A stretch of 64,000 nucleotides of DNA from Actinomycetota bacterium. Lineage in GTDB: Bacteria > Actinomycetota > UBA4738 > HRBIN12. Numbering within the stretch: position 1 is the first letter of the stretch; the number at the start of each line of letters is the position of its first letter. The notes under the pieces were generated by a model that saw only the letters and a program-made list of their open reading frames with translations, was not told the DNA's origin and searched no databases. The DNA lies in assembly GCA_040902745.1 (NCBI GenBank), contig JBBDWR010000012.1:44171-108170 (forward strand), in the 5' to 3' direction. The position numbers and the translations under genes are program-made. This document shows, piece by piece, positions 9,775 through 54,549 of the stretch.

Positions 9775-9794
9775 CCGGAATGTCGACAGTATAC
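9775..9794. promoter_or_regulatory. palindromic operator site (15/20 to GTAGACTGTCGACAGTCTAC)
   Basis: CCGGAATGTCGACAGTATAC, in the ltaE / aminotransferase divergent promoter region. Confidence 0.6.
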
Positions 9795-9842
9795 AATCGC
9801 GCCCCAAGCGCACTGCGTGCGACCGGCAGATAGGGGTGCGAG

Positions 9843-11201
9843 ATGGGCAAGATCGCCAGGGGGCGACTCGAGGGATTGCTCCAGGACGAACAAGCGCGAT
9901 TCACTCGCGAGCACCCCCGCTCCGAGGCGTTGTTCGAACAGGCCAAGGGGTCATTGCTGGGAGGGGTGCCTATGCCCTGGATGACCGAGTGGGCAGGTCC
10001 TTTCCCCGTCTTCGTGACCGAGGCCGAGGGATCCCGGTTCGAGGACGTCGACGGCAACAGCTACGTCGATCTGTGCCTTGGCGACACCGGCGCGATGGCC
10101 GGGCATGCCCCCAAGGCATCGGTGGAGGCGATCGCCGCGCAGGCGGCCAAGGGGATCACCTTGATGCTCCCGACCGAGGACGCGATCTGGGTGGGCCGGG
10201 AGATGCACCGGCGGTTCGGGTTGCCGTATTGGCAGTTCTGCCTGACGGCGACCGACGCCAACCGGTTCACGATCCGCATCGCCCGTGAACTCACCGGCCG
10301 CGACAAGATCCTCGTCTACAACTGGTGCTACCACGGTTCGGTCGACGAGACGATGACGACGATCTCCGACGACGGGTCGCTCCAGCCCCGGCTCGGCAAC
10401 GTCGGACCTCCCGTGGACTTCGCGCTCACGACGCGCGTCGTGGAATGGAACGATCTCGATGCGCTCGAGGCGGCGCTCGCGCACGGGGACGTCGCCTGTG
10501 TGCTTGCCGAACCCGCGCTGACGAACATCGGGATCGTGCCGCCCGACCCCGGTTACCACGACGCCTTGCGAGAGCTGTGCACCAAGTACGAGACGTTCCT
10601 GGTGATCGACGAGACGCACACGATCTGCGCCGGTCCCGGCGGGGCGACCAGGGCCTGGGGGCTCGAGCCGGACTTCGTCACGATCGGCAAGCCGCTCGCC
10701 GCGGGTGTTCCCGCCGCCTCCTACGGCATGAGCGAGAGGGTCGCGCAGATGATCTACGACCGACCCCAGATCCTCGAGCGCTCGGACACGGGAGGGATCG
10801 GCGGCACGTTGTCGGGCAACGCGCTCTCACTCGCCGGGATGCGTGCAACGCTGGACAACGTGTTGACCGATGAGGCTTTCGATCGGATGTTCGCACTGGC
10901 CGAACGCTGGACGGACGGTGTACAGACCGGGATCGAGGCCCACGCCCTTCCTTGGACGGTGCAGCGTCTAGGCGCCCGAGCCGAGTACTGGTTCTGCGAT
11001 CCGACTCCCCGCAACGGTGGACAGGCGGCGGCCGCACACGACGCCGAGCTGGCCCGCTACACACATCTGTTCGCCCTCAACCGAGGGGTGCTCCTCACGC
11101 CTTTCCATAACATGGCGCTGATGAGCCCGGCGACCACGATCGCCGACGTTGACAGGCACACGGAGGTGTTCGCGGAGACCGCGTCGGCGCTCGTCGGCTG
11201 A
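9843..11201 (+). CDS. class-III PLP aminotransferase (glutamate-1-semialdehyde aminomutase-like subgroup)
   Basis: 452 aa. DVDGNSYVDLCLGDTGAMAGH..VIDETHT..TIGKPLAAGVP (PLP-Lys context). Confidence 0.8.
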   Translation: MGKIARGRLEGLLQDEQARFTREHPRSEALFEQAKGSLLGGVPMPWMTEWAGPFPVFVTEAEGSRFEDVDGNSYVDLCLGDTGAMAGHAPKASVEAIAAQAAKGITLMLPTEDAIWVGREMHRRFGLPYWQFCLTATDANRFTIRIARELTGRDKILVYNWCYHGSVDETMTTISDDGSLQPRLGNVGPPVDFALTTRVVEWNDLDALEAALAHGDVACVLAEPALTNIGIVPPDPGYHDALRELCTKYETFLVIDETHTICAGPGGATRAWGLEPDFVTIGKPLAAGVPAASYGMSERVAQMIYDRPQILERSDTGGIGGTLSGNALSLAGMRATLDNVLTDEAFDRMFALAERWTDGVQTGIEAHALPWTVQRLGARAEYWFCDPTPRNGGQAAAAHDAELARYTHLFALNRGVLLTPFHNMALMSPATTIADVDRHTEVFAETASALVG

Positions 11202-11254
11202 CGATGTGCCAGATGCTCGACGCGACGCGGCTGAACGCCCACGAATACGGGCCG

Positions 11255-19774: not shown

Positions 19775-20683
19775 TTAGTCGGCTCCGGCCGCCGAGCGAA
19801 CCTGCACGCCCGCGTCCTCCTCGAGCACGGTCACGAGCGCCGAATGATCGAGCTCCCCGCCGCCCGAGTCGACGAGCCGTTGCAGCTGCTCCACGACTCG
19901 TTCGAACGCCGGTGTCGGCACGCCGAGTTCCGCCGCGGTCTCCTCGATGATCCGGGCGTCCTTGCGATGGAGCCGGATCCGGAATCCGGGATCGAACGTC
20001 CCGGCGAGCATCCGCTGCCCGTGCACCTCGAGGATCTTGGAACCCGCGAAACCGCCCAGCAGCGCTTCACGAACCTTTGCGGGATCCACGCCGGCCTTCG
20101 CCGCCAGCACGAGCGCCTCGGCGACCGCCTCGATGTTCGCCGCGACGACGAGCTGGTTGCACGCCTTCGTCACCTGCCCGGCACCACTCGGCCCGACCAG
20201 CACGATGCTCTTGCCCAGCACCTCGAAGATCGGCATGGCCCGAGCGAAGTCCTCCTGGCGCCCCCCGACCATGATCGACAAGGCCCCCTCGATCGCACCC
20301 TTCTCGCCCCCAGAAACCGGTGCGTCTAGGAACCCCACCGCCTTCGCCGCGAACACCGCCGCCAGCTTCCGGGTAGCCCCCGGCGAGATAGAAGACATGT
20401 CGATGACCAACTGCCCCGCCCGCACCCCATCAACCACCGGATCCGGCCCCGACACCAACACCGCCTCCACATCCGGCGTGTCCGGCAACATCGTGATCAC
20501 CACATCAACCCGCCCCGCCACCTCCGCAGGACTCTCCCCCCGCTTCGCCCCCGCCGCGACCACCTCATCAACCGATCCCGCCGACCGCGAATGCGCCACA
20601 ACCTCGTACCCCGCCCCCAACAGATTCATCACCATGGGCTTGCCCATGATCCCCACCCCGACAAACCCCACCGTCTCCGTCAT
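19775..20683 (-). CDS. NAD(P)-dependent 3-hydroxyisobutyrate / 2-hydroxy-3-oxopropionate reductase family dehydrogenase
   Basis: VGFVGVGIMGKPMVMNLLGAGYEV Rossmann N-terminus. Family-typical length, 302 aa. Confidence 0.8.
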   Translation of the reverse strand: MTETVGFVGVGIMGKPMVMNLLGAGYEVVAHSRSAGSVDEVVAAGAKRGESPAEVAGRVDVVITMLPDTPDVEAVLVSGPDPVVDGVRAGQLVIDMSSISPGATRKLAAVFAAKAVGFLDAPVSGGEKGAIEGALSIMVGGRQEDFARAMPIFEVLGKSIVLVGPSGAGQVTKACNQLVVAANIEAVAEALVLAAKAGVDPAKVREALLGGFAGSKILEVHGQRMLAGTFDPGFRIRLHRKDARIIEETAAELGVPTPAFERVVEQLQRLVDSGGGELDHSALVTVLEEDAGVQVRSAAGAD

Positions 20684-20839
20684 TCAGCAACTCCCCATGT
20701 ACTCGATGTGATGTGGATCCCTCGTCGCTCCCAGATCACGGATCCCACGACCGGTCAGTAGAGCTCACGGACGAGGTGAGTCCGAGGAAGCCGGCGCCGA
20801 TGAGGCGACGGCGTTCGGGCCCACCTCGTCACGACCAGC

Positions 20840-22180
20840 TCAACCCCCGTCCATTGCCTGGTCCGCGATCTCCAGCGCCTTGTCCAAGACCTCGAACGCA
20901 GAAGCGAGCTCCTCCTCGGAGATGATCAACGGCGGGTTCGTCATGATCGTGTGCCAACGAACGAACGTCGCGACACCGTTGTCGAGAAGGAATCGATTGA
21001 TCGCGATCATCGTGTCGTTCATCGTGTTGAAGGGCGACAGCGGCTCCATCGTGTCGCGATCCTTCACGAGCTCGAGGATCCCGAACAGCCCGATGTTCCG
21101 ATGCAACCCGACGCTCGGGTGGCGCTCCGCGAGCTGCTCGTGATGACGCCGCAGCACCGGGTCCAGCTCGCGCGCGCGTTCGATCAGGTGCTCCTCCTCG
21201 AGCACCTCGATCGCCGCGATCGCCGCCGCGACCCCGAGCGGGTGTGTGTTGTAGGTCAGACCGCTCCAGAACACGTTGTCGGTGAAGTGGTCCGCGACCT
21301 CGGGCCGCAGGCCGACGGCGCCGAGTGGGGCGTAGCTCGATGTCAGCCCCTTCGCCGTCGTGATGATGTCGGGAACGACGTTCCATCGGTTCACGGCGAA
21401 CCACTCACCGCACCGGCCCCATCCGCACATCACCTCGTCGGCGATCATCAAGATCCCGTAGCGGGTGCACAGCTCGCGCACGCCTTCGAGGTAGCCGTCG
21501 GGCGGGATCAGGATCCCGTTGGTGCCAACAACGGTCTCCAGGATGAAAGCCGCGATCGTGTCCGGGCCCTCGAGCTGGATCGTCTCCTCGAGCAGACGCA
21601 GGCTCGTCTCGGCATCGTCCACCGGTCCCTGCGGCCCGTGGTACGGGTCGAGCACGTGCACGACGCCCGGCAATCCGGGCTCGTTCGGCCAGCGCCTCGG
21701 ATCGCCGGTCAGCGTCATCGCCCCGGTCGTCGCACCGTGGTAGCTGCGGTAGCGCGCGAGGATCTTGAACCGTCCGGGCCCCTGCACGAGCCGCGCGATC
21801 TTGATCGCGTTCTCGTTGGCCTCGGCCCCACCCAGGGAGAAGAAGGACTTCTCGATGTCTCCCGGCCAGAGTCCGGCGAGCTTGCGACCCAGGATCGCGC
21901 GCTCCTCGTAGGCCAGCAGCGGCGAGATGAACGGCAGCTTCTCGGCCTGGCGCTGGATCGCCTCGATCACCTTGCGGTTGCCGTGGCCGATGTTCACCGA
22001 CATCAGCTGGCTGTTCAGGTCCAGGTACCGCTTGCCGTCCACGTCCCAGAAATAGACGCCCTCGGCCTTGGCCACCGCGATCGGCGACGCCTTGGCCTGT
22101 GTCGTCCAGTCGTACATCGTGTACCGCTTGGAGAGTTCGACGATCTCCGTCGCGGACAGCGAGCCGCTCTGCTGGCTCAT
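20840..22180 (-). CDS. class-III omega-aminotransferase (beta-alanine/taurine-pyruvate type)
   Basis: Start ATG 22178-22180 overlaps the mmsA stop (ATGA). YFWDVDGKRYLDLNSQLMSVNIGHG..MIADEVMCGWGR..TTAKGLTSSY. Confidence 0.8.
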   Translation of the reverse strand: MSQQSGSLSATEIVELSKRYTMYDWTTQAKASPIAVAKAEGVYFWDVDGKRYLDLNSQLMSVNIGHGNRKVIEAIQRQAEKLPFISPLLAYEERAILGRKLAGLWPGDIEKSFFSLGGAEANENAIKIARLVQGPGRFKILARYRSYHGATTGAMTLTGDPRRWPNEPGLPGVVHVLDPYHGPQGPVDDAETSLRLLEETIQLEGPDTIAAFILETVVGTNGILIPPDGYLEGVRELCTRYGILMIADEVMCGWGRCGEWFAVNRWNVVPDIITTAKGLTSSYAPLGAVGLRPEVADHFTDNVFWSGLTYNTHPLGVAAAIAAIEVLEEEHLIERARELDPVLRRHHEQLAERHPSVGLHRNIGLFGILELVKDRDTMEPLSPFNTMNDTMIAINRFLLDNGVATFVRWHTIMTNPPLIISEEELASAFEVLDKALEIADQAMDGG

Positions 22181-23640: not shown

Positions 23641-23667
23641 AGGTGGTGCACCTCCTGGGAACTTCGT

Positions 23668-24858: not shown

Positions 24859-24878
24859 GGTCCGCTACCTTTCGCTGG

Positions 24879-33481: not shown

Positions 33482-33536
33482 TCTGCGTCGACCGGACCAG
33501 CGTGTCGTCCTGGCTCAGCGCCTCACCCCGTCCCGC

Positions 33537-36479: not shown

Positions 36480-36491
36480 CCGCCTCGAAGG

Positions 36492-39539: not shown

Positions 39540-39564
39540 CGTCCCCGTTCCTCTCTCGCGACGA

Positions 39565-40023: not shown

Positions 40024-40066
40024 GTCGGTTGCTTCACCTCCCCTCGTGTGCGTCTCACGCGCCACC

Positions 40067-40447: not shown

Positions 40448-40473
40448 TCCCTCCCCTCCTCTTGGCCTTTCCT

Positions 40474-41793: not shown

Positions 41794-43097
41794 GCGGACA
41801 CCTCCCACACGGTCGCCGGCTCCACGTCGGTCTCAACCATCTCGAGCGCGCGTTCCACGATCTTGGTGCGCAGTGCCACTTCTTCCTCCTCGTCCAGCGA
41901 CGGATCCCCGGTCGGGTTCGTGATCGCCGGCCCTCGCACGATCCGGCTGGCTCCCGCCATCTGTGCGATCGTCGGCAACGACGTGATCGTCGCCACCGGG
42001 ATGCCTTTCCGTTCGATCTCTTTCGCAAGCGTCGCCCCGCAACGCGTCCCTGTGCCTCAGGTGCCGGTCAACACCACCGCCTGGACTCCGGCATTGACCA
42101 GCTCGGCCGCGATCTCCTGGCCGAAGCGCGTCGCGGACGCCACGGGCGTGTCCACGCCCGTCGTCGTGTAGAAGGTCGGATGCAACCGGCCGATCCGTCC
42201 CTGGGTCTCCAGCCTTCGCACCGCGTCCAGCGGCACGAGCCGATTGGGATCGGCATTCCCAGCGGTCGTGTCGAAACCTCCGTGGACGGTTTCGTAGGCA
42301 TCGGCCGACATTGAGGCCACTCCGTCGATGGGATAGGCCAGCCAGGCGTGCGCCCGGCGAGAGACGAGGTGATCCGGGTTGCCCTGGGGAACACACCCAG
42401 CCTCCGACACGAGCGCCACCAGCGCCTCGCTCACGTCCGGCACCGGCGACGCCGGCGGCACGACTTCGAACGCAGGCGCCACTTCTGTCTCGAAGGCCTC
42501 GCCGCGGAGCTTGGCGAGCACCAGATCGAGGGCCCGGTCGGCTCCCGACCGATCGACGACCTCGTTGCGTCGGATCCCCCGGGGCAGGTAGCCCGCCTCT
42601 TCTGGCGAGCCCGGGTCGCGCCCCTCGGCGAGCGCCACACCGATGGCGGCGAGCACGGGAAGCGCGTCCTTCATCCCCGCGACGTTCGCGGTGGTCGGAA
42701 CGACGTAGGCACCCCCCTCGGCGGCGATCACCCCGGGGTTCTCGGGGAACATCGCCGTCACGACGGGGATCCCACGTCGCGAGGCCTCGCGGGCGAGCAT
42801 CCCGCAGGCGTAGCCGTAGCGGCCCGAGTTGAAGGCGGGCCCGCACACGAGTACGTCGGGCGCCTCCTCCTCCAGCCAGGCAAGCAGGGTTGCGAGCGCG
42901 GGATCCTCGTGTTCGGCGAAGTAGTCGTCTCCGCACGCCAGCGTGACGTCGACGGGCAGTCCCAGCGGCGTCAGCCCTCGGCCGGGTCCCTGCGGCCCCT
43001 CGAGGCGCACCGGCTCGTGACCTGCGGCCTCCTCGGCACCGAGACCTGCGAAGAATTGGTTCATGTAGTGGACGACGCGAACCGCGGCCGGGCTCAT
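41790..43097 (-). CDS. grdB: glycine/sarcosine/betaine reductase selenoprotein B family (GrdB/GrdF/GrdH) with in-frame UGA
   Basis: MSPAAVRVVHYMNQFFAGLGAEE.. N-terminus. Read-through of TGA 42057-42059 gives ..AVVLTGT-U-GTGTRCGATLAKEIERKGIPVATITS..NPTGDPSLDEEEE... The ORF track splits it into 42057..44066 and 41790..41996, which are in the same frame. 435 codons, typical GrdB size. Confidence 0.85.
42029..42045 (-). promoter_or_regulatory. candidate SECIS hairpin downstream of the grdB UGA
   Basis: GCGUUGC-GGG-GCGACGC (7-bp stem incl. one G-U). The stem starts 11 nt after UGA and the G-rich apical loop starts at +19, consistent with bacterial SECIS geometry. Confidence 0.55.
42057..42059 (-). 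other. in-frame UGA selenocysteine codon of grdB-family gene
   Basis: TGA sits in the conserved LT(S/G)T-U-G-T-x-T-R-C-G-A-T context. Confidence 0.8.
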
Positions 43098-44377
43098 ATC
43101 GTCACTCCCCGCAGTCTGCCGTCCCCGAGTTGCGTCGCGGCGTCGAGGTAGTGCAGCACCGGCACCTGTGCCGGTGCTTCGTGATCCGTTTCGCCGATCA
43201 CGCTCGCGGGCGTCCAGCCGTCCGCGCGCTCCAGAACGTTGCCGGTCGACACCAGTGCGTCTGCTTCTGCGACGTGGTCGGTCAGGCCCCCCTCTTCCGC
43301 GACGATGCCCACGGCGCGAACGCCGAGTTGTTCGCACGCGCGCAGGGTGAGCATCGTGTCGGTGTGGGAGTTGCCCAGCGAATACGTCGTGCAGATCGCG
43401 GCATCCGCGCCGAGTTCCTCGGCTGCGATGTGCGCCGCGCCGTCCGCCATGCGCCGTTTGTCGTCCGCGTCGTCCAGGTATCCCTGGGTCAAGACCGCGC
43501 CGGGACACACCAGCGCGGTGCCGTGCTCGTTTAACAGGCGATGCAGCAAACGCGACCGTTGGATCGTTCCCGTGCTCACGCGCGCCGCGGGTGAGTCGTA
43601 CGCGCCCGCGGTCAAGGCACCATCGAGCAGCGCTCTCGGATCGACGGCGCAGGGACTCACAAGGTCCACGGGCGCTCCGCGCAGGTAGGTCGTCAGCCCC
43701 GGTCCCTCGGCCGTGAACTGCAGGATCGGCACCACCACGGGCAGCTCCCCGGCCACTTCCCCGAGCGCGAACACGGACTCGGTATCCGCGTCGCTGTCCT
43801 CGGCCGTAGCCGAGGCCAGATCCCGGGCCGCTCGGAGCAGTGTGCGGCGGGCGGCCGCGTCGACGTCGGCGAGAGAGGCGCCCTGCGCGGCTACCAGCTC
43901 CAGGACCAGGTTGATCGTCGATCCCCACGGGGTCAGAGATGCCCCCGATCCGTCCATGTCGACGTAGCTGGCCGGGATCGGATCGTCGGGATCGATCAGC
44001 GCTCCCATGTCGAGCGTCGACAACACCGCGATGCCGTCGAGCCGATCTGTTCGTCCCGTGCCGCATAGCGCGTCGGCGGGGCCGAGCACGCCGGGGAAGG
44101 TCGCCGCAGGATCGTCCGCCTTGACCGACGGCACGACGGCGTCGAGGACGTTCGCGATACGAACGGAGTCACCGGGACGAACGACGTGCGCGCGCAACGA
44201 GCCGAGCGCGGGTTCGTCGGAGCACAGGGACTCGACGACGTCGAGGTCGATCTCGAGGAGAGGATCGCCGGGAGTGCGAGAGACGCGCCCTTCCCCATGG
44301 CGCACCTCCCGCACCGCCCGGACGTCGAAAGCCGCGACGGTGAGCGGCGACGCAGAGATGGTACCCGGTCTCGGCAT
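43094..44377 (-). CDS. glycine/sarcosine/betaine reductase component B alpha/beta-type subunit (GrdE/GrdG/GrdI family), lacking the canonical Asn-Cys autoprocessing site
   Basis: ATG 44375-44377. 427 aa. RPGDSVRIANVLDAV.P..K...FPG, LLDGALTAGAYDS.., TQGYLDDADDKRR.., NSHTDTML. ATGA overlap with grdB. The long 5' ORF extension was rejected. Confidence 0.75.
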   Translation of the reverse strand: MPRPGTISASPLTVAAFDVRAVREVRHGEGRVSRTPGDPLLEIDLDVVESLCSDEPALGSLRAHVVRPGDSVRIANVLDAVVPSVKADDPAATFPGVLGPADALCGTGRTDRLDGIAVLSTLDMGALIDPDDPIPASYVDMDGSGASLTPWGSTINLVLELVAAQGASLADVDAAARRTLLRAARDLASATAEDSDADTESVFALGEVAGELPVVVPILQFTAEGPGLTTYLRGAPVDLVSPCAVDPRALLDGALTAGAYDSPAARVSTGTIQRSRLLHRLLNEHGTALVCPGAVLTQGYLDDADDKRRMADGAAHIAAEELGADAAICTTYSLGNSHTDTMLTLRACEQLGVRAVGIVAEEGGLTDHVAEADALVSTGNVLERADGWTPASVIGETDHEAPAQVPVLHYLDAATQLGDGRLRGVTI

Positions 44378-44379
44378 CC

Positions 44380-46035
44380 TCACACCATCCCCCGCTCGGG
44401 GTCCCTCTGTGGCCTGCGTCGCGACCTGCGAGCATCTCGGAGGACCTCCCGGGCGCAATTGCTCCCGTTCGCTCCGGTCACCCCGCCTCCCGGATGTGTC
44501 CCCGCGCCGCACAGGTACAGGCCGCGAACCGGCGAGCGGTACGCGCCGTAGCCGCGGATCGGTCGCAAGAACAGCAATTGGTCCGGCGACATGTCGCCGT
44601 GCATGTGATGGCCGCCGGTGAGCGCGAGCCTTCGCTCGAGATCGAGCGGCGACAAGACCTCGCGATGCAGCACCGATCCCAAAACGTTGGGGAACGCTTC
44701 GCCCACGCGTTCGATCACGCGGTCGGCGATCGCGTCCTTGCGTTCGTCCCACGTTCCGTCGGCCAGTCGGTACGGCTGTGAACGCACGCCGACCGTGACG
44801 ACGTGCTGTCCCGGTGGCGCGAGCGAAGGATCCGACACACTCGGGATACACAGCTCGATGTGCGGCTGGTCGGCCGGTTCGCCCGCCTTCGCGTGTGCCT
44901 GGTCCATGTCGAGGTCCCGCAGGGGCTTCGTGAGCTGGATCAATGCCCGGTGGTAGGGCTGCTCACGGGCCCCGGCGGCCGATCCGGCCCCCGGGAGATC
45001 GTCGAACCCGGCCAGGCGCGGCAGCTCGGAAACGCCAAGGTTGATCTTCATGCTGGCTCCGTCGGTGCGGTAGGAGCGGATCGCCCCGACCACCTCGTGC
45101 GGGAGCTCGCGCTCCCCCACCAGGCCGAGGAATGTCCGTTTGGGATCGGCGTTGGACAACACGAGGTCGGCAAAGAGCTCCTCTCCCGAGCCGGCCAGCA
45201 CCACGCCCGTCGCCCGGCCGCCGCGGATGACGATCCGTTCCACCTCGGCGTCGGTGCGGATCAACACGCCGCGTTCGGTTGCGGCCTCCGCCATGAGCCT
45301 CGTGACCTCTCCCATGCCGCCGCGGACGAATCCCCAGTTCTGCTGGCCGACCCCGCTCGCGTGATCGTGCAACAACACGTACGCGGTGCCGAAGGCCTTC
45401 GGCCCGGCGAGTGTGTTGCTGATCGACTCCCAACCCAGTGCGGATTTCAGCTCGTCGGACTCGAACCACTCGTCGAGGTACTGCGCCATCGAGGTGGTGA
45501 ACAAGAAGCTCAGCTCGGTCAGGCGCTTGCGGTTGCGCAGGCCGAGTCGCGCGAACCACGCGAGCGCCGAAAGATCCCGCCTGCTCGGCGCGCGCGGGTC
45601 GGGCGGGGTCCGGTCGAACACCGGCAGGATCGCCTCCGCGAGGCCGGCCAACCGCTCCTCGAACCGTGGGTAGGCGCGCGCGTCCCGTTTGGAGAACCGC
45701 GCGATCTCCTCGCTCGCCGCTCCAACGTCACCGTGCAAGAATAGGTGCGCGCCGTCCGGATACAGGTTCAGCGAAGGCGTGGCCGCGTCGACGTGCAGGC
45801 CGCGTTCCCGCAGCCGGAAGTCCCGCCAGATCGCGGGCCGCAGCATCGAGAGTACGTAGGCGCCCGGAGACGCCCGGAACCCCGGCGCGAACTCCTCCGT
45901 GGTGCACGCGCCCCCGACCAGCTCGCGACGCTCGAGCACGCACACGCGAAGACCCTCGCGGGCCAACGAGAACGCGGCGACGAGTCCGTTGTGTCCGCCG
46001 CCCACGATGACGACGTCGTAGCGGTTGGTCGTCAC
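44380..46035 (-). CDS. FAD-dependent oxidoreductase, CrtI/phytoene-desaturase-like (PYROXD2-like) paralogue 1
   Basis: GTG start. YDVVIVGGGHNGLVAAFSLAREGLRVCVLERRELVGGACTTEEFAPGFRASPGAYVLSMLRP.. and C-terminal GLYLCGAGTHPGGGVTGANG. Its stop is 2 nt from the grdE-like start. Confidence 0.8.
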   Translation of the reverse strand: MTTNRYDVVIVGGGHNGLVAAFSLAREGLRVCVLERRELVGGACTTEEFAPGFRASPGAYVLSMLRPAIWRDFRLRERGLHVDAATPSLNLYPDGAHLFLHGDVGAASEEIARFSKRDARAYPRFEERLAGLAEAILPVFDRTPPDPRAPSRRDLSALAWFARLGLRNRKRLTELSFLFTTSMAQYLDEWFESDELKSALGWESISNTLAGPKAFGTAYVLLHDHASGVGQQNWGFVRGGMGEVTRLMAEAATERGVLIRTDAEVERIVIRGGRATGVVLAGSGEELFADLVLSNADPKRTFLGLVGERELPHEVVGAIRSYRTDGASMKINLGVSELPRLAGFDDLPGAGSAAGAREQPYHRALIQLTKPLRDLDMDQAHAKAGEPADQPHIELCIPSVSDPSLAPPGQHVVTVGVRSQPYRLADGTWDERKDAIADRVIERVGEAFPNVLGSVLHREVLSPLDLERRLALTGGHHMHGDMSPDQLLFLRPIRGYGAYRSPVRGLYLCGAGTHPGGGVTGANGSNCAREVLRDARRSRRRPQRDPERGMV

Positions 46036-46038
46036 GTC

Positions 46039-46848
46039 CTAGGACGCCCTCACCGCACTGCCACGGCGCGCCACGTATTCGTCGCAGCGCGCGATCAGAT
46101 GGTCGCGCCCGAAGCTCGGATCGTGTCCTCCGTGAACCATGCGCACGGAGAACTCGCGGAGGCGCCGCATCGATGCCACGAAGTCGGGGATCGAGGAGTT
46201 CGGTAGCTCGTCCAGCAGTTCGTCGTCCCGATAGACGGTGTCGCCGGAGAACAAGGTCCCCGTCGCCTCGTCGAACAGCACCATCGAGCCCTGGGTGTGG
46301 CCGGGCGTGTGGAACACGGTGAAGGAACGGTCCCCGAGGTCGACGGTGTCGCCTTCGGTGACGGTGCGGGTCGGCTCGGTGGCGATCAGCGAATATGACG
46401 ACAGTTCGTAGCCGGGCGAGGGCACCGCGTCGATGAACGAGTCCGGCAACGGTGTGCCGTCCTTGGTCAGGGCGTCCTGGAAGTCCTGCGGCATCTCCGA
46501 GGGGATCAGCGTCCCTCCGTCTCGCGCGTTGGCCACGTCCGGAGCTTCCAGCTCGTGGGCGATCCGCTCGTCGAACTCGTGCAGTCCGCCCATGTGGTCG
46601 CTGTGCGCGTGCGTCACGACGGCGATGATCGGCTTGCCCGGATCGGGGCGCAGCGCGTCGACGAACGGCTTGAGCGGAGCGACACCGTTCGCCGTGTCGA
46701 CGAGCAGATCGGCGTCCCGGCCGGGAACAAGCCACACGTTGCCGCGGATCCATGCGTACATGTGCGGCTCGTTGATGCGGAACACGCCGGGCTCGACTTC
46801 GACGGCCTCGAACCACGCCTCGTCGACCGGCAGCGATGATGCGCCCAT
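46039..46848 (-). CDS. MBL-fold metallo-hydrolase
   Basis: ATG 46846-46848 after AAGGGAGG. THAHSDHMGG (HxHxDH), HTPGHTQGS. Confidence 0.85.
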   Translation of the reverse strand: MGASSLPVDEAWFEAVEVEPGVFRINEPHMYAWIRGNVWLVPGRDADLLVDTANGVAPLKPFVDALRPDPGKPIIAVVTHAHSDHMGGLHEFDERIAHELEAPDVANARDGGTLIPSEMPQDFQDALTKDGTPLPDSFIDAVPSPGYELSSYSLIATEPTRTVTEGDTVDLGDRSFTVFHTPGHTQGSMVLFDEATGTLFSGDTVYRDDELLDELPNSSIPDFVASMRRLREFSVRMVHGGHDPSFGRDHLIARCDEYVARRGSAVRAS

Positions 46849-46859
46849 GGCGCCTCCCT

Positions 46860-48032
46860 TCAGCGCGACCGGCCCGCGGGTGACGTGTCCCGCCGGCGGG
46901 TCGCATCGGCGACCAGCTGGTCGGAATCGGACAGCAGGTTCGCGAGCACGCGCGCGCACTCCACCACGTCGTGGAGGGCCACGTGCTCGTCGGGTCGGTG
47001 CGCATTGCGCAGGTGCCCGGATCCGAACACCACGGTGTCGGATCCGGCGATGTCGACGAAGTTGTGCGCGTCGGTCCAGGCGAGCATCCCGTGCTCGCCC
47101 GGCTCGGTACCCCGCACGGACGCGATCGCGCTTCGCATCGCGCCCGCCAGGGGGGCATCGGGCGGGGTCTCGAACGGCTCGGAGATCTCCACGACGTCGA
47201 TGCGGGCATCGTAGCCCGCGGCGATCGTTCGCACTTCGGTGAGCACGTCTGCCGCCGACGGGCCGCCGGCGGTCACCCGGATATCCACGTGGAGCTCGGC
47301 ACGCTCCGGAACGACGTTGAGCCGCTGTCCGCCGTGCAGTTCCCACAACATCGGGAAGTTGCGCCCGAGCGTGCGGTGGGTGTGGGAGGTGAAGTCGGCG
47401 CGCTGCAGGTCGGTCGCGAACGCGACGGCCTTCTCGAGAGCGTTGTCACCTTCCTCGCGCAGGGCGCCGTGCACGGCTCGGCCTTCGAACCGCGCCCAGA
47501 ACTCCGTGAACCCGGCCTCGGCGAGCCCGAGATCCAGCTCAGTGCCTTCGAGCCCGACAACCATCGCCGGACGCAGGTCGTCCGCCATCCGCATCGACCC
47601 CTTGCCACCGACCTCCTCGTCGACGCACAGGCCGATCCCCACGGGCATGTGTGCGAGATCGACCCCGTCGTCGAGCGCCATCTGGAAAGCCAGCATCGCG
47701 GCGACAACGCACCCCTTGTCGTCCTGGGCGCCGAGGCCGTAGAGGAGATCCCCTTCGAGGGTCGCGACCGGCGTGTGATCCCATTCCGGCCGGATCGTGT
47801 CGACGTGTGCGGTAAGCAGCAGTCCGGGAGACCGATCCCACCCGACCAGGAGGTTGTCCGCCGAGCCCTCCACCTGCTGGCGCGTGGACGGGAATCCCAG
47901 CTCCTTGGCCCGGCTCTCCAGGTAGGACACGATCTCATGCTCCTCGTCGGAGTACGAGGTGATCTCCACCTGGCGAACGAGCTCCTCACGTGCCCAATCG
48001 AGCGCGACCGCGGTTTCCACGGCAGATAGCAT
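46860..48032 (-). CDS. M20-family metallohydrolase, paralogue B
   Basis: Aligns by eye with 34643..35785 (LDWAREELVRQVEITSYSDEEH, LLLTAHVDTIRP, GLGAQDDKGC, CVDEEVGGKGS). Start is ATG 48032 or GTG 48020. No SD before either. Confidence 0.8.
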   Translation of the reverse strand: MLSAVETAVALDWAREELVRQVEITSYSDEEHEIVSYLESRAKELGFPSTRQQVEGSADNLLVGWDRSPGLLLTAHVDTIRPEWDHTPVATLEGDLLYGLGAQDDKGCVVAAMLAFQMALDDGVDLAHMPVGIGLCVDEEVGGKGSMRMADDLRPAMVVGLEGTELDLGLAEAGFTEFWARFEGRAVHGALREEGDNALEKAVAFATDLQRADFTSHTHRTLGRNFPMLWELHGGQRLNVVPERAELHVDIRVTAGGPSAADVLTEVRTIAAGYDARIDVVEISEPFETPPDAPLAGAMRSAIASVRGTEPGEHGMLAWTDAHNFVDIAGSDTVVFGSGHLRNAHRPDEHVALHDVVECARVLANLLSDSDQLVADATRRRDTSPAGRSR

Positions 48033-48048
48033 ACTGTCGACAATCGAC
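48029..48048. promoter_or_regulatory. palindromic operator site (16/20) overlapping the M20-B ATG
   Basis: GCATACTGTCGACAATCGAC, at the head of the M20-MBL-flavoprotein-grd operon. Confidence 0.6.
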
Positions 48049-49240: not shown

Positions 49241-50716
49241 CTACAGGCCCAGCGACCCCCAAGGTCCGGTGATCGCACACGTGATGCCCGGCACCTGGAC
49301 GTTGACGAACAGCCACTTGCCGTCGGGACTGAAGCGCGGTCCCGCGAACTCCGCGTGACCGATCCCGTCGCCCGCAGACGCACCGTCATCGGGAACCGTC
49401 GGGTCGTAGATCTTGCCCGACGCCTCGATGTAGTGCAGCTGCACACCGACGAGGTTCTCCGCGACGTTGATCAACGAACCGTCGGGCATCAGCGCCCGGA
49501 CGAAGTTCGACGTCTCGTCGCCGTCCTCGGCGATCAGCACCGCACCGCTCGGGCTCGTCCCCATGTTGTCGGGGCCGTCGAGGTCGTCCTCGCTCGTCGA
49601 CTCGTACAGCAGCTTCAGGATGCCTCGCTCGTCGATCTCCCCGCGTCGGATCGTGGGCTTGTACTGCCAGACCTGCCCGAGACCCGCGTCGCCGCCGTCG
49701 GACGAACCGAAGACCACGGCGTTGTTCTGGGGCACCCACGTCGCGCCTTCACCACCGAGGAACTTCGCCGCGCCCTTGGCCCGGCCCAACTTGAAGACGG
49801 CGCTCGCGTCGTCCTCTGCGTTGGCCGGGTCGGGATCGTCGATCGGCACCCAGCGCACCGGCAGCTCCTGCCCGACGACCTGGCCGCGGATCGTGTTGTA
49901 CTTGGGCTCCCCCACGACCTTCAGCATCTGCAGGGCGCCGCCCTCCTTCAGCTTGCCGTAGGTATTCGGTACGAAGCGATAGAACCCGTCCGGGCCCTCG
50001 TCCTCGGTCATGTAGACGACACCGGTCTCGTCGTCGACCGCACCGGCCTCGTGGAGCATCCGCCCCATCGCCTTGATCGGCTGCTTGCGCACGGCCCCGT
50101 TGGCCATCGCCTTGACCTCGAACACGTAGCCGTGCGGCTTCTTGCAGCCCGCGTTCACGCCGGTGACGGTCTCTTCCATCGTGAGCCAGGTGCCCCACGG
50201 AGTCTCGGCTCCGGCGCAGTTCGTGTTCGTGCCGTTGAGCGAGATGAAGTGGTCGACGAGCTCACCGTCCGGCGTGACCTCGAGCGTCGTCGTGCCGCCC
50301 GGGGACTTGCGGTCGTAGGCCGTCGCCGGGTTCCCGATCACGCTGCCGGCGGGGATGTCGTTGCCCTCACCGAGTTCGTGGTTGCGGACGATCCGGTAGT
50401 TGCCGTTCGGTGCCGGGTACACACCCATCCCGTCGTGGATAGGCGGGGTGAGGAACCCGTCCGACATCGCCGAGCCGAACCACCCGAACGTCTTGTAGCT
50501 GAAGCCCGGCGGAAGTGCGAGCTCCGGGCCCGCCGGAACCAGTCCCGTCCCCGGCGTCGCGCCGTGGGTCCTCGCGATCGAATCGAACACCTCTGCCCCG
50601 GCGCCCTTCGACATCAGCGCGGCACCGGTCATCGCGGCGCCGATCACACCGGAGCGGATGAACGCGCGGCGGCTGACCGCCCCACGTCGTCCGGCCCCAT
50701 CCTGCTCGGCGCTCAG
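49241..50716 (-). CDS. PhoX/DUF839-family secreted phosphatase-like protein with Tat signal
   Basis: PPGFSYKTFGW..SDG..HDGMGVYP..YRIVRNHE. The twin-arginine motif SRRAFIRSG lies upstream of the only canonical start (GTG 50647). The 5' end is set provisionally at CTG 50714-50716. Confidence 0.7.
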   Translation of the reverse strand: MSAEQDGAGRRGAVSRRAFIRSGVIGAAMTGAALMSKGAGAEVFDSIARTHGATPGTGLVPAGPELALPPGFSYKTFGWFGSAMSDGFLTPPIHDGMGVYPAPNGNYRIVRNHELGEGNDIPAGSVIGNPATAYDRKSPGGTTTLEVTPDGELVDHFISLNGTNTNCAGAETPWGTWLTMEETVTGVNAGCKKPHGYVFEVKAMANGAVRKQPIKAMGRMLHEAGAVDDETGVVYMTEDEGPDGFYRFVPNTYGKLKEGGALQMLKVVGEPKYNTIRGQVVGQELPVRWVPIDDPDPANAEDDASAVFKLGRAKGAAKFLGGEGATWVPQNNAVVFGSSDGGDAGLGQVWQYKPTIRRGEIDERGILKLLYESTSEDDLDGPDNMGTSPSGAVLIAEDGDETSNFVRALMPDGSLINVAENLVGVQLHYIEASGKIYDPTVPDDGASAGDGIGHAEFAGPRFSPDGKWLFVNVQVPGITCAITGPWGSLGL

Positions 50717-50857: not shown

Positions 50858-50877
50858 GCAGACTGTCGACAATCTAC
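50858..50877. promoter_or_regulatory. palindromic operator site (18/20)
   Basis: GCAGACTGTCGACAATCTAC, between the PhoX-like gene and the divergent ORF at 51006. Confidence 0.65.
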
Positions 50878-51005: not shown

Positions 51006-51599
51006 GTGACCGAACGTCTCGAAGGTGCCGATCCGATCCCTCCTGAGGCGATCGACGAACCCGACGAGACGTTCGGCGATGACTCGCAAGAGGTGCTGCT
51101 CGCGGCGATCGCGCTGCGTCACCTCCAGAGCGGTCGCGACGTGTGCGCGCGTCGCGGTTCCGTCGCTCTCCCCGTTCCCGAAACCGGCGAGGCGGCGAGC
51201 GCTCGTTCGGGGACCCCTGTGCTGATCTACGCCTCGGAAGCAGGAGACCGGAAGGTCCCCGCTGCGACCTGGCGCGCGATGTTCATCGGTTGGACGGCGG
51301 CGACCGAAGACGGCGGGCACCCTGCCGGCGACGACCACGTGCCGCCCACCGTGGTCGTCGACCGTGATCGTCCGGCCGACGAACCCGCCGACGACGCGCC
51401 GGAGCGAGATCTGGGAGACGAGCCCGATCCCGACCCGGACGACGAGTCGGACGGAGCCGCAGGCTTCCTCGAGGTGACGACGCTCGAACAACTCCCCGAA
51501 CGCGACTGGGTCGCGACGAACGAGCTCGTTCCCAAGCAGGAGCGACGCGCTCGATATTTCATGCCGCTCGGTCCGCGCCTCGTGCACCTGCCGCCGTAG
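51006..51599 (+). CDS. hypothetical acidic protein
   Basis: 197-aa ORF, GTG start, coding-like third-position GC. No recognisable motif. Confidence 0.45.
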   Translation: MTERLEGADPIPPEAIDEPDETFGDDSQEVLLAAIALRHLQSGRDVCARRGSVALPVPETGEAASARSGTPVLIYASEAGDRKVPAATWRAMFIGWTAATEDGGHPAGDDHVPPTVVVDRDRPADEPADDAPERDLGDEPDPDPDDESDGAAGFLEVTTLEQLPERDWVATNELVPKQERRARYFMPLGPRLVHLPP

Positions 51600-51641: not shown

Positions 51642-53264
51642 TCAAGCGCGGCGGCGCTTCACGTCGCGGAGCACCTCCCGGGCGCAGTTGCGTCCGTTCG
51701 CGCCGGTGACCCCGCCGCCCGGGTGCGTTCCGGCGCCGCACAGATACAGCCCCTGCAGAGGCGTGCGGTAGTCGGCCCAGCCGCGAACCGGACGCATGAA
51801 CAGCAACTGATCGGGGGACATGTCGCCGTGCAACGCATGACCGCCGGTGAGACCCAGCACCCGCTCGAGGTCGAGGGGCGAGAGGACCTGGCGATGCAGG
51901 ATCTTGTCCGGCAGGTCGGGGAAATACGTGGCGATCTGCGCAACGGTCGCGTCGGCGCGCTCATCGATGATGTCGTCCCAGTGCTCGGCGCCTTCCCGCA
52001 GGTTGTAGGGCTGGGAGTTCACGTCGATCGTCATGATGTGCGTTCCTTCGGGTGACAGCGAAGCGTCGTGCACCGTCGGGAAGCACACCTCCACGTGCGG
52101 ATGATCGGTCGCAGGAACGCCAGACCTCGCCTGCGCCTGCTGCAGGTCCATGTCGCGGATGAAGCCGGTCAGCTCCATGATCCCGGTGTGGTACGGCTGC
52201 ACCCCGCCGTCGGGTAGACCGCGCACGTACGGCAGATCCGACAGCGCGAGATTGATCTTGATGCTCGTTCCGATGCAACGATACGCTTCGAGTGCGCCGA
52301 CGAACTCCTCCGGCAACTCCGCTGGGTCGCACAGGTTCAGGAACGTGCGCTTGGGATCCGCGTTGCTCAACAGCCGCCGACCGTGCAGCTCCTCGCCCCC
52401 AGCCAGCGCAACGCCGAACGCGCGACCGTTCTCGGTCAGGATGCGCTCCACCTCGGCGCCGGTACGCACCTCGCACCCGGCCTCGCGCGCGGCGCCGGCC
52501 ATCAGTTCGGTCAGCGTGCCGATCCCGCCGCGGACGAAGCCCCACTGGCGCACGCCGCCGCCCGTTTCCTCGCCCGCGTGGTCGTGTAGCAACACATACG
52601 CGGTTCCGTTCTCGCTCGGACCGGCGACGCTGTCATTGATCGCGTGCCAGCCGATCGCCGCTCGCACGTGCTCGGACTCGAACCGCTCCCCGAGGAACTG
52701 GGACGCGCTGGTGGTGAACAGGAACGCGGCGTCCAGCAGCATCTTGCGGCTCTTCATCGCAAGCCGGCCGAGCTTGAGCATGCCGCGCAGGTCTTGCAGG
52801 TTGCGCACCCGCGGATCGGGCGCAGTCAGATCGAAAGCGGGAACGACGTTCTTCGCGAGCGCGGCGAGATGCTCCTCGAACGCCGGAAAGGCCTGCGCGT
52901 CCTTCTTGGAGAACCGCGAGATCTCCTCGAGGTTCGGGGCCATCTCGTCCCCGAGATACAGGTGCGCGCCGTCCGGATACAGGTTCAGGGAGGGACCGGC
53001 CGCGTCGACGTGTACCCCCCGGCGTTCCAGGTCCATGTCACGCCAGATCGCCTCGCGCAGCATGCTCAGGACGTACGCACCCGTCGAAGCGCGGAAGCCG
53101 GGAGCGAACTCCTCCGTGACGCAGGCGCCGCCAACGATGTCGCGGCGCTCGAGCACCACGGTCTTGAGGCCGGCGCGCGCGAGATAGAAGCCCGCCACCA
53201 GGCCGTTGTGTCCACCCCCGATCACGATCGCGTCGTACCGGCGATCATCGCTGCTGCTGGCCAC
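51642..53264 (-). CDS. FAD-dependent oxidoreductase, PYROXD2-like paralogue 2
   Basis: GTG 53262-53264 after GAGGAGGG. YDAIVIGGGHNGLVAGFYLARAGLKTVVLERRDIVGGACVTEEFAPGFRASTGAYVLSMLRE... Collinear with 44380..46035. Confidence 0.8.
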   Translation of the reverse strand: MASSSDDRRYDAIVIGGGHNGLVAGFYLARAGLKTVVLERRDIVGGACVTEEFAPGFRASTGAYVLSMLREAIWRDMDLERRGVHVDAAGPSLNLYPDGAHLYLGDEMAPNLEEISRFSKKDAQAFPAFEEHLAALAKNVVPAFDLTAPDPRVRNLQDLRGMLKLGRLAMKSRKMLLDAAFLFTTSASQFLGERFESEHVRAAIGWHAINDSVAGPSENGTAYVLLHDHAGEETGGGVRQWGFVRGGIGTLTELMAGAAREAGCEVRTGAEVERILTENGRAFGVALAGGEELHGRRLLSNADPKRTFLNLCDPAELPEEFVGALEAYRCIGTSIKINLALSDLPYVRGLPDGGVQPYHTGIMELTGFIRDMDLQQAQARSGVPATDHPHVEVCFPTVHDASLSPEGTHIMTIDVNSQPYNLREGAEHWDDIIDERADATVAQIATYFPDLPDKILHRQVLSPLDLERVLGLTGGHALHGDMSPDQLLFMRPVRGWADYRTPLQGLYLCGAGTHPGGGVTGANGRNCAREVLRDVKRRRA

Positions 53265-53290
53265 GTGCCCTCCTCTTTTCCCCGAACGGT

Positions 53291-54532
53291 CTACGCCGTC
53301 AGCCGGTCGTCGAAGTAGACCGCGTTCGCCGCCGGACGCAGCGTGTGCGCGGCGTACATCGCCTGGTTGTACCCGCCGACGGCGATCAGCGCGAGCAGGT
53401 CCCCTTCGTGCACCTCCGGCAGAGGGACGTCCTCCCCGAACAGGTCGTCTCCCTCGTTCACGTTTCCGCTCACCGTCACGCGTTGGGTCGGCTCGGCGTC
53501 GAGCCCGGTGGCGTGCACGATCGTGACCGGGTCGTCGTAGACGAAGCGGTCGTTGATCACGTTCCATCCCACATCGATACCTACGAAGGTCGTCCCCGCC
53601 CGATCGCTCACGGTGACGACCTCTGCGAGCAACACTGCCGACTCGTTCGCGAGGAAGAAGCCCGGCTCCGTTCCCACGACCACGTCGAGGGGACCCAGGT
53701 GCCGAGCGAGGATCGCAGCCCATCGATCCAGGTCGAGCGGTTCCTGACCGGGTTCCAGCGGGAGCCCCTGCCCGCCGCCGGTGTTCACCTCGCGGATCGG
53801 ACAGCCGGCGTCGAGCATTGTGCGCGCCATCCGAGCGACCTCGTTGATCGCGTGGTCCCAGGCTGGGAGATCCTCGGTGAGATAGCCGTCGCCGACATGA
53901 ACGTGCGCGGTGACGATCGACAGGTCGTGCCGGCGCGCGATCGCGATCGCGTCGTCGAGATCCTCCTCGTAGAAGCCGAACTTGGTGGGGCGCTTGGCGG
54001 AGTAGAGCGACTCGCTCTCGCCCCCGGAGGCTGCGCCCGCTCGGGGGTTGAGCCGGATGCCCACCTCCCGTCCCCGCGCGCGCCGTCCGAACCGATCCAG
54101 CTGGCTCGGAAGATCGAGGTTCACATGGAGCCCATCGAAGTCGAGCAGACGGTCGATGTCGCGCTCAGACAGGTTGGTCCCGGTGTGGCTGATCTCCCTC
54201 GGCTCGAACCCGCTCGTGACCGCGTGCTCCACCTCTCCCGGGGTGCATGCGTCGATCCCGACGCTCTCGGGCGAGCCGGGCGCTCCGAGCCCCCGCACGT
54301 AAGCAAGGACCGGCTCCTCGCGTTGGGCCTTCATCGCGAGCCGCACCTTCGGCGCGACGCCGGCGGCGCTCAGAGCGCGCTGCAGGTCCCGCGCCTGCTC
54401 ACCGACCCGCTGCAGGTCGAAGGCGAAGAGAGGAGTCCCGAGCTCGCGGGAGAGATCCGATGCCGATCTTCCGGCGATCTCGAGCTCGCCTCCGACCGAT
54501 CGGACCCCCTCCGTTTCCCACCACGTATCCAA
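53291..54532 (-). CDS. PLP-dependent Orn/DAP/Arg-type (fold III) decarboxylase, paralogue B
   Basis: TTG start. GTPLFAFDL, LAMKAQRE (PLP-Lys), HVHVGDG, NTGGGQGLP, GGYNQAMYAAH. Confidence 0.8.
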   Translation of the reverse strand: MDTWWETEGVRSVGGELEIAGRSASDLSRELGTPLFAFDLQRVGEQARDLQRALSAAGVAPKVRLAMKAQREEPVLAYVRGLGAPGSPESVGIDACTPGEVEHAVTSGFEPREISHTGTNLSERDIDRLLDFDGLHVNLDLPSQLDRFGRRARGREVGIRLNPRAGAASGGESESLYSAKRPTKFGFYEEDLDDAIAIARRHDLSIVTAHVHVGDGYLTEDLPAWDHAINEVARMARTMLDAGCPIREVNTGGGQGLPLEPGQEPLDLDRWAAILARHLGPLDVVVGTEPGFFLANESAVLLAEVVTVSDRAGTTFVGIDVGWNVINDRFVYDDPVTIVHATGLDAEPTQRVTVSGNVNEGDDLFGEDVPLPEVHEGDLLALIAVGGYNQAMYAAHTLRPAANAVYFDDRLTA

Positions 54533-54549
54533 GATGGTCGACAGTCTAC
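54530..54549. promoter_or_regulatory. palindromic operator site (16/20) overlapping the TTG start of decarboxylase B
   Basis: CAAGATGGTCGACAGTCTAC, in the 54-nt spacer between the two decarboxylase genes. Confidence 0.6.

Follow-up and report, generated by a model that had tools for sequence, protein, structure and literature searches.

A conserved 20-bp palindrome at gene 5′ ends and its likely FadR-type GntR regulator in uncultured soil Actinomycetota

Palindromic sites and flanking genes

A stretch of 64,000 nucleotides from an Actinomycetota bacterium (assembly GCA_040902745.1, contig JBBDWR010000012.1, positions 44,171 to 108,170 of the forward strand), hereafter referred to as the window in its full length, carries eight copies of a 20-bp palindrome, which in an original prediction had been described as heading the transcription units of a candidate GntR regulon. 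Here we report that the eight palindromes constitute a real, non-random operator motif confined to 5′ regions, that the motif precedes the same gene families in other genomes, and that it probably serves as binding site of the GntR protein encoded in the window. The gene map was based on frame analysis of the G+C content at third codon positions (GC3) and on Pfam and NCBIfam matches, and the gene names that the original prediction had given to the units flanking all eight sites agreed with these families.

The candidate regulator GntR (28111..28824, minus strand) is a protein of 237 amino acids with an N-terminal GntR-type winged helix-turn-helix (wHTH) domain (PF00392, residues 25-87, E=5.7e-16, 58.4 bits vs a cut-off of 27) and a C-terminal FCD domain (PF07729, residues 97-219, E=1.6e-24, 87.1 bits vs a cut-off of 24.3), as found in the FadR subfamily. 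The nearest PDB chains were all FadR/FCD-type GntR proteins, and the best NCBIfam match, phnR_burk with 135.4 bits, was below its cut-off.

Site 1 (9775..9794) is located between the divergent genes of an ltaE-like beta-eliminating lyase/threonine aldolase (8733..9761, minus strand; PF01212) and of the class-III aminotransferase AT3_a (9843..11201, plus strand), both predicted targets, with distances of 13 nt to the ltaE start codon (ATG 9761) and 49 nt to that of AT3_a (ATG 9843). Site 2 (27850..27869) lies 240 nt past the GntR stop codon and 75 nt upstream of the ATG (27775) of the solute-binding protein (SBP) gene heading the operon of the first ATP-binding cassette (ABC) transporter, ABC-1 (19775..27775, minus strand). 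This operon encodes the PotD/F-like SBP, two permeases and an ATPase, and then catabolic genes, i.e., a CoA-acylating (methyl)malonate-semialdehyde dehydrogenase (MMSDH; 564 bits, passing the NCBIfam cut-off of 448), the omega-aminotransferase AT3_b and, after a 156-nt gap, a 3-hydroxyisobutyrate-dehydrogenase-like (HIBADH-like) protein. Site 3 (28904..28923) separates GntR from the divergent class-III aminotransferase AT3_c (28988..30454, plus strand), also a predicted target; the start codon (ATG) of GntR is 80 nt away and that of AT3_c 65 nt.

Site 4 (35869..35888) is positioned 84 nt upstream of M20A, the head gene of an operon for an M20 deacylase and the transporter ABC-2 (SBP, two permeases, and ATPase; 30455..35785, minus strand), and about 100 nt past the stop codon of an Lrp/AsnC regulator gene (35988-36479). 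The latter forms an operon with the orphan SBP3 (35988..37598, minus strand), and site 5 (37665..37684) lies between this operon, a predicted target, and a divergent short-chain dehydrogenase gene (SDR; 37730..38563, plus strand; likewise a predicted target), at distances of 67 nt to the start codon of SBP3 (ATG 37598) and 46 nt to that of SDR (ATG 37730). Site 6 (48029..48048) heads the long operon M20B...grd (38676..48032, minus strand), in which M20B is followed by genes for a metallo-beta-lactamase-fold protein, the amine oxidase AO1, GrdE-like, GrdB(Sec), GrdC-beta-like, thioredoxin, GrdA(Sec), and an SMP-30/gluconolactonase-like (SGL) protein. Site 7 (50858..50877) is found between the gene of a PhoX-family protein (49241..50647, minus strand), the true start of which is probably further upstream, and a divergent gene for a conserved hypothetical protein without Pfam match (51006..51599, plus strand), both of them predicted targets. 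Finally, site 8 (54530..54549) lies between decarboxylase A (deC_A) and decarboxylase B (deC_B) and heads the operon of deC_B, a pyridoxal-phosphate (PLP) decarboxylase of the ornithine/diaminopimelate/arginine family, and the flavin amine oxidase AO2 (51642..54532, minus strand). Both site 6 and site 8 overlap candidate start codons, which refines the first account of these two sites.

The PhoX-like/hypothetical divergon had been named in the original prediction and was retained, as relatives also have the plus-strand open reading frame (ORF) 51006-51599, again in divergent orientation to PhoX; an alternative minus-strand ORF (50967-51587) beside site 7 was rejected on the same grounds. Upstream of the first canonical PhoX start codon (GTG 50647), a Tat-like signal SRRAFIRSGVIGAAMTGAA is encoded in the region 50648-50833 (minus strand), and the PhoX reading frame up to the stop at 50833 is free of in-frame ATG, GTG, or TTG codons, pointing either to an error in the sequence or to a start codon of non-canonical type.

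Occurrence and anatomy of the motif in the window

The eight 20-mers, with the consensus GTAGACTGTCGACAGTCTAC, were found exactly as predicted in both position and number of consensus matches, which for sites 1 to 8 amounted to 15, 15, 18, 14, 17, 16, 18, and 16 of the 20 positions. Three of the eight sites deviate from the consensus at no more than three positions, vs none in shuffled sequences. The core TGTCGACA occurs in six copies in the window, which has a G+C content of 67.5%, vs 1.47 copies expected. Five of the copies belong to the claimed sites and the sixth (14503-14510) is intragenic with 11/20 flank matches, and so it was rightly described as the only other core, lying within a gene and lacking the flanks.

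From the eight sites, a palindromic position weight matrix (PWM) was derived. With 22.5-30.9 bits, the sites were the top eight PWM matches in the window, while the best unrelated match (14.5 bits, position 35338) is intragenic and was treated as chance. Eight matches of at least 17 bits were observed vs a mean of 0.13 in first-order Markov simulations of the window, and in a leave-one-out procedure every omitted site still ranked within the top eight of the 64 kb. Independently of the first alignment, an unbiased test was performed for 8-mers over-represented in the non-coding 5.1% of the window; the top four enriched words were all pieces of the motif, and ACTGTCGA had seven of its eight copies in non-coding DNA (p=4e-9). 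All eight sites are located in the non-coding fraction or on a start codon, in line with the predicted intergenic or 5′-proximal position of every site. Searches with the PWM and with the conserved 13-mer described below gave no further sites in the window; the only other 13-mer with up to two mismatches (33768) is intragenic and was regarded as a chance match.

Across relatives, strongest conservation is confined to 13-14 nt, GTAGACTGTCGAC[A], of which site 8 contains a perfect 13-mer copy. In 58 unique sites, the positions G8, T9, A12, and C13 of the central box G8 T9 [C/T] [G/A] A12 C13 are invariant, and one flanking box (GTAGAC) is conserved nearly to the level of the core (G1 0.95, T2 0.91, A5 1.0). 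The third GTnnAC box is weaker (T16 0.74, A19 0.60, C20 0.74), and at positions -11..0 and 21..32 the information content drops to about zero. Two readings of the element are equivalent: a 20-bp palindrome whose GTAGAC/GTCTAC boxes have their centres 7 nt away from its own, and a series of three GTnnAC boxes at 7-bp spacing.

The consensus of the FadR subfamily is TKGT/ACMA, in the form NyGT-Nx-ACNy with x = 2 or 3 (PMC4494728). The central [C/T]TGT-CG-ACA[G/A] of the motif corresponds to these boxes with x = 2, and thus the fit to the general GntR/FadR operator pattern noted in the original prediction was borne out, including the 2-nt spacing. This rarer GT/AC spacing has been listed for PrpR, GntR, HpxS, HypR, and MdcY (PMC4494728).

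Conservation in other genomes

When 185,579 species-representative genomes were scanned for relatives of the GntR protein, 48 loci with 50-81% identity were obtained, along with seven loci of up to 35% identity that were used as controls. Nearly all of the 48 loci belong to metagenome-assembled genomes (MAGs) of uncultured soil Actinomycetes/Actinomycetota, together with a few Chloroflexia and Thermoleophilia. Using the PWM of the window at a threshold of 17 bits, the GntR-ortholog loci (816 kb) gave 88 site clusters, and the seven low-identity control loci gave none. Taken together, the control sets (about 1.6 Mb) contained three clusters, with none in 115 kb, two in 862 kb, and one in 624 kb; the two in 862 kb belong to the loci L125 and L133, and the MAG of L133 carries a GntR ortholog.

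Genes of the relatives were annotated by tblastn with the window proteins. The PWM matches in the GntR-ortholog loci were located ahead of the ABC-1 SBP gene (36), GntR (24), GrdE (10), AO2 (6), SDR (6), AT3_c (2), deC_A (1), PhoX (1), and unannotated genes (9), and none was truly intragenic. With the 13-mer GTAGACTGTCGAC and up to two mismatches allowed, a site was found upstream of the GntR ortholog in 41 of the 48 loci; altogether, 122 matches were obtained, vs 16 in 938 kb of control loci, and two weak matches are inside genes. For other targets, the frequency of sites was 10-11/26 for GrdE, 4-6/14 for AO2, and 6-11/35 for SDR.

Counterparts in other genomes exist for all eight sites of the window. 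For site 2, the counterparts (GTCAACGGTTGACAATCTAC type) are the 36 sites ahead of the ABC-1 SBP gene, found among 41 gene-holding relatives, and sites flank GntR on both sides in most relatives, upstream of the gene itself and just downstream of it, ahead of the SBP gene. The SDR sites corresponding to site 5 are often shared with a divergent GntR, in the counterparts of site 6 the motif is placed directly on the GrdE start codon (10-11 loci), and sites like site 8 precede AO2 and deC_A orthologs. Together with the sites at M20A/ABC-2 (4/4 loci), at PhoX (14 plus 3 via an AO2-PhoX operon, of 18) and at AT3_a (three relatives), this shows the conservation upstream of orthologous operons by which the regulon was to be checked. 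Also, a comparison of intergenic with coding regions placed 8/8 window sites and nearly all of the approximately 100 clusters in relatives at gene 5′ ends.

From locus to locus, the grd genes, AO2, PhoX, SDR, and AT3_c change their positions relative to GntR, and the motif stays with the same gene families despite the shuffled gene order. The order GntR, site, SBP ... AT3_b, HIBADH is kept in most relatives. The conserved core accordingly comprises GntR, followed by ABC-1 with the omega-aminotransferase and the HIBADH-like gene, the grd block (GrdE, GrdB, GrdC-beta, thioredoxin, GrdA) with SGL, SDR, and AT3_c, furthermore AO2 with or without a decarboxylase, and PhoX. As the same gene families are preceded by the motif across genomes, the idea that it ties together scattered operons including a selenoprotein operon gains support from the comparison.

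Further genome scans were anchored on the AT3_a, M20A, and PhoX proteins. AT3_a gave 80 loci, mostly from Acidobacteriota, Chloroflexota, and other phyla, and a GTAGACTGTCGACC-type site resembling site 1 was present in only three of them (L125, L133, and L114), 68-94 nt upstream of the gene; L133 and L114 are from MAGs also holding a GntR ortholog. All four M20A loci contain Lrp, the motif, and M20A-ABC-2, with the site 4 counterpart GCAGACTGT[CT]GAC[CG]GTTC about 70 nt upstream of M20A. In three of these four cases, the M20A locus and GntR are on different contigs of one MAG, which implies a trans-acting factor. PhoX gave 18 loci with at least 58% identity and 25 site clusters in 204 kb. A site of the type GTAGATTGTC[GA]ACAGT[CT]CAC, the counterpart of site 7, is located directly upstream, at 150-220 nt from PhoX, in 14 of these loci; three have the AO2-PhoX operon, and in one the motif is absent. 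The 62 PhoX loci with up to 47% identity (other phyla, 624 kb) contained a single 18-bit match, elsewhere in locus L184.

Actinomycete relatives without the GntR motif ahead of AT3_a (L058-L071) have another conserved element, GTTTGACG ... CGCGAGGCT, at 60-100 nt upstream of the AT3_a orthologs, and there AT3_a appears to be under another control system.

One of the relatives is cultured. Nocardioides bigeumensis JCM 16021 (L164, NZ_BAAAQQ010000014.1) has sites at 701-720 and 4828-4847. This and the other Nocardioides-type loci (L142-L144, L148, L157) encode a FadR-type GntR of 36-38% identity, which is preceded by TCTCATTGTCGACATTCGAC (TCTCATTGTCGACATT[AC][TG]AC), i.e., by a ATTGTCGACAT core. 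Their hypothetical/PhoX divergon, beside an ABC importer and an aldehyde dehydrogenase, carries a GTAGATTGTCAACAGT site (GTAGATTGTCAACAGTT[AC]AC). With the PhoX-side motif and the related GntR in N. bigeumensis JCM 16021, the system can be tested in a culturable organism.

Comparison with known systems

Among characterised regulators, PrpR of Pseudomonas resembles the window GntR in its GntR wHTH plus FCD domains, the identical core TGTCGACA with TKGT/ACMA boxes, and a site upstream of its own gene. In P. aeruginosa, the predicted PrpR motif is ATTGTCGACAAT, and the protein binds its own upstream region and behaves as a repressor (PMC9765439). However, the window GntR is not a PrpR ortholog, and Pfam and NCBIfam matches gave no methylisocitrate lyase, methylcitrate synthase, or methylcitrate dehydratase (prpB, prpC, prpD) in the regulated units. 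Also, the motif of the window is 20 bp long with conserved GTAGAC/GTCTAC boxes where PrpR has A/T flanks, and its regulon would comprise at least 11 units, with many operators overlapping leaderless start codons.

The best-scoring named family for the window GntR is PhnR (TIGR03338; E=2e-39, full-length alignment). PhnR systems also pair a PotD-like ABC importer with an aminotransferase. However, the score of GntR is far from the equivalog cut-off of 271.5 bits, and none of the signature genes phnW, phnX, and phnA was identified in the annotated units; the PhnR function must not be transferred to the window GntR.

Weaker extra boxes at 7-12 nt from the site centre have been reported for 13 FadR-subfamily groups (Suvorova et al. 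2015, PMC4494728). The flanking boxes of the palindrome, at 7 nt from the centre, agree with this, but here at least one of them is conserved nearly as well as the core and coincides with a -10-like hexamer. With E. coli FadR and the other FadR-type repressors LldR, PdhR, GlcC, and NanR, the window GntR shares fold and domains (PDB/NCBIfam E=1e-9 to 1e-20). In FadR-type logic, a repressor bound over the promoter is released by an effector. Most of these regulators differ by 3-nt GT/AC spacing (PMC4494728), and their identity to the window GntR is low. Literature searches on PDB entry 7XP0 found nothing, and those on the PhnR binding site and on Grd clusters in Actinobacteria gave nothing directly usable.

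Identity of the binding factor and alternative explanations

The eight palindromes are, in our assessment, likely the operators of the FadR-subfamily GntR protein encoded at 28111-28824. No regulator other than GntR is conserved in the motif-bearing loci, and across the 48 GntR orthologs the wHTH is far more conserved than the FCD domain (86% vs 54% identity), which agrees with the near-invariant core of the motif. Autoregulation of GntR, suggested in the original prediction by the site in its own promoter region, is supported by the sites upstream of its orthologs.

Binding of a real operator by another factor, e.g., the Lrp/AsnC protein or an unlinked regulator such as a GntR paralog or a global nitrogen/amine regulator, would turn the local GntR gene into a mere target, and we regard this as unlikely. 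Lrp, which the original prediction had named as alternative binder, is encoded inside the cluster next to site 4 and likewise in four relatives, and FadR-type paralogs with similar cores exist, as the Nocardioides-type GntR proteins illustrate. However, the 48 GntR loci with their 88 sites contain no Lrp ortholog within 10 kb (0/48), and Lrp is present only beside M20A; because of this absence Lrp is an unlikely binder and was rejected as such. Instead, it is read as a regulated member of the regulon. Lrp sites are typically A/T-rich, and the palindrome is unlike them. Furthermore, the sites on both sides of the GntR gene, the much higher conservation of its DNA-binding than of its ligand domain, and the fit of a G+C-rich palindrome with GT-N2-AC to the GntR/FadR consensus (PMC4494728) all speak for GntR, and a better candidate for an Lrp site exists in a separate direct repeat near the Lrp gene (35900-35940).

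That the motif is instead a promoter element, such as the recognition sequence of an alternative sigma factor, acting without a repressor, seems very improbable. The actinobacterial -10 pattern is TANNNT. The outer boxes TAGACT, TAGATT, and TATACT fit it, some sites contain TTGACA, and start codons often follow at a fixed short distance. But a -10/-35 pair has no need of a two-fold symmetric palindrome with an invariant central GTYRAC, and the distance to the start codon varies from overlap to about 200 nt upstream. Within the predicted promoters the motif also takes varied places, i.e., the -10 (site 3), the spacer (site 6), or the -35 (site 2), and it tracks the presence of the GntR gene. 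Of still lower probability, to the point of being nearly negligible, is an origin as structural or selfish repeats without regulatory role, such as elements resembling repetitive extragenic palindromes (REP) or miniature inverted-repeat transposable elements (MITE), RNA hairpins, terminators, or remnants of duplicated promoters. Such elements can be expected as 20-bp palindromes in intergenic DNA, and several targets are indeed paralogous (M20A/M20B, three SBPs, three aminotransferases). However, information vanishes just outside the 20-mer in the 58 unique sites, revealing neither a larger repeat unit nor a duplicated flank, so a mobile or REP-like repeat and duplicated promoters were rejected. 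Conservation before the same gene families across genomes diverged to 50-80% points to selection. In the scanned regions, three terminator-like matches were found, none of them at a site, and no site is followed by a T-run; as the sites are also at 5′ rather than 3′ ends, an intrinsic terminator or RNA hairpin was likewise rejected.

Several points weigh against the assignment to GntR. It is based on sequence comparison. The locus set was anchored on GntR, so that adjacency to GntR arises partly by construction, and loci obtained with different anchors are partly on the same contigs, so that counts are not fully independent. The AT3_a, M20A, and PhoX anchors show co-occurrence at the level of incomplete MAGs. 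Some GntR-carrying relatives are without a site at a given target (AT3_a in L057, PhoX in L146), and because of this the membership of the regulon is variable between genomes. Sites 1, 2, 4, 5, and 7 are 45-200 nt away from start codons, and at some promoters activation may take place. Finally, the 20-mer may hold one dimer or two overlapping dimers.

In the vicinity of Lrp, an exact 9-bp direct repeat (35900-35908 and 35932-35940, 32-bp spacing; plus strand GTGCCGGAT, minus strand ATCCGGCAC, two copies) is found after the Lrp stop codon and before site 4, a short way ahead of the M20A promoter region. In all four orthologous loci (L136-L139), its place is taken by another repeat, two copies of GGATTCC with a spacing of about 33-34 bp. 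The repeat at 35900-35940 is a candidate Lrp/AsnC binding site, possibly co-controlling the M20A/ABC-2 operon.

Promoter context and proposed mechanism

A promoter scan covering 18 kb around the sites gave just two sigma-70-like matches, both of which overlap sites. Site 3 holds TAGACT (28905-28910), the -10 hexamer of the predicted promoter TTGACC-18-TAGACT, and site 6 sits in the -35/-10 spacer of the predicted promoter TTCACA-18-TATGCT (minus strand). Also, site 2 includes the -35-like hexamer TTGACA on the minus strand, and hexamers fitting TANNNT are present in site 1 (TATACT), site 7 (TAGATT), and, on the minus strand, site 8 (TAGACT). At site 8, the TTG start codon (54532) is inside the site. 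Because ATG 48032 is likewise inside site 6 and the alternative GTG 48020 follows only 9 nt downstream of the site and 7 nt after the -10, the mRNA of the M20B...grd operon is probably leaderless. The GrdE, AO2, and GntR genes of relatives have start codons whose first base falls on motif positions 14-18, at 7-11 nt past TAGACT (for example, cTTGACC-17-TACTGT-8-ATG); there is no room for a Shine-Dalgarno sequence.

As the sites are placed on core promoter elements, a factor bound there could presumably only repress, and this arrangement points to repression by promoter occlusion, in agreement with the general behaviour of FadR-type regulators. In the mechanism that we propose, dimeric GntR would recognise the central T-GT-CG-AC-A core together with the flanking GTAGAC/GTCTAC boxes 7 bp from the centre, and would thereby block RNA polymerase at a -10/-35 hexamer, in the promoter spacer, or at a leaderless start codon. 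GntR would thus keep at least 11 transcription units with about 35 genes repressed, along with its own gene, until a small-molecule effector bound at the FCD domain releases it. The sites provide clean examples of operators that cover both the -10 hexamer and the start codon of mRNAs without leader. Each outer TAGACT of the palindrome may itself be a -10 for leaderless transcription, which would make the 20-mer a self-contained bidirectional promoter-operator cassette; if true, this would explain how genes join and leave the regulon.

The regulated pathway

The proposed regulon includes two PotD/F-type ABC importers, three omega-aminotransferases, two M20 deacylases, two flavin amine oxidases, the (methyl)malonate-semialdehyde dehydrogenase, the HIBADH-like gene, a PLP decarboxylase, the threonine-aldolase-like lyase, the SDR, the PhoX-family protein, the Lrp regulator, and the operon of a Grd-type selenoprotein reductase. 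Since MMSDH, an omega-transaminase, and the HIBADH-like gene occur together, their family names suggest catabolism of a beta- or omega-amino compound via (methyl)malonate semialdehyde.

The selenoprotein operon named in the original prediction is real, as both selenoprotein genes on the minus strand have an in-frame TGA codon in canonical context (GrdB, 42057-42059, ...VLTGT-U-GTGTRCG; GrdA, 39895-39897, ECFV-U-TASGAMD). A lineage of uncultured, high-G+C soil actinomycetes hence possesses a complete Grd-type selenoprotein system. GrdC-beta passes its own cut-off (509 vs 450 bits). The GrdE-like protein reaches only 118 bits vs sarcosine GrdG (cut-off 780) and 69 bits vs fluoroacetate FarE (cut-off 675), and because these scores are far below the cut-offs, the substrate of the reductase is probably an uncharacterised one. 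A thioredoxin gene (40067-40441) lies between the GrdC-beta-like gene and GrdA.

The regulon may therefore delimit an undescribed catabolic pathway of soil Actinomycetota that feeds a Grd-type reductase. In such a pathway, PotD/F-type uptake, omega-transaminases, flavin amine oxidases, PLP decarboxylases, and M20 deacylases would supply the reductase, the substrate-specific B subunit of which would have a new specificity, and GntR would sense the pathway substrate or an intermediate. The pathway and the cassette described above are compatible and are put forward jointly, as a tentative proposal that we consider rather doubtful at present.

Thereby, an operator and a regulon are assigned, with the probability given above, to an uncharacterised FadR-type regulator that occurs almost only in uncultured soil Actinomycetota, and about 35 genes in at least 11 transcription units are joined as one functional unit. 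This gene grouping is the best available handle on the Grd-type selenoprotein reductase and on the genes for transaminases, amine oxidases, decarboxylases, and ABC importers by which it is accompanied in many genomes. While the regulon is new, its regulatory logic is conventional for the GntR family, and its interest rests mainly on the pathway that it delimits.

Further observations in the window

Between PhoX and the M20B...grd operon, a gene of the PD-(D/E)XK nuclease family (PDDEXK_13 / REase-ARP; 48098-49054, minus strand) was found. The relatives examined lack this gene at the corresponding position, and so it may have been inserted and have split the cluster. On the margin of the regulon, a divergent YceI / HxlR pair without the motif (11255-12390) adjoins the ABC-1 operon in nine relatives; this is conserved synteny without shared regulation. 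Unrelated to the regulon, the region 5236-7832 encodes a sigma-70-family factor (5236-6072), small ORFs adjacent to it, and an anti-sigma-type kinase (HATPase_c_2; 7389-7832), and an adenylate/guanylate cyclase is encoded at 62051-63358.

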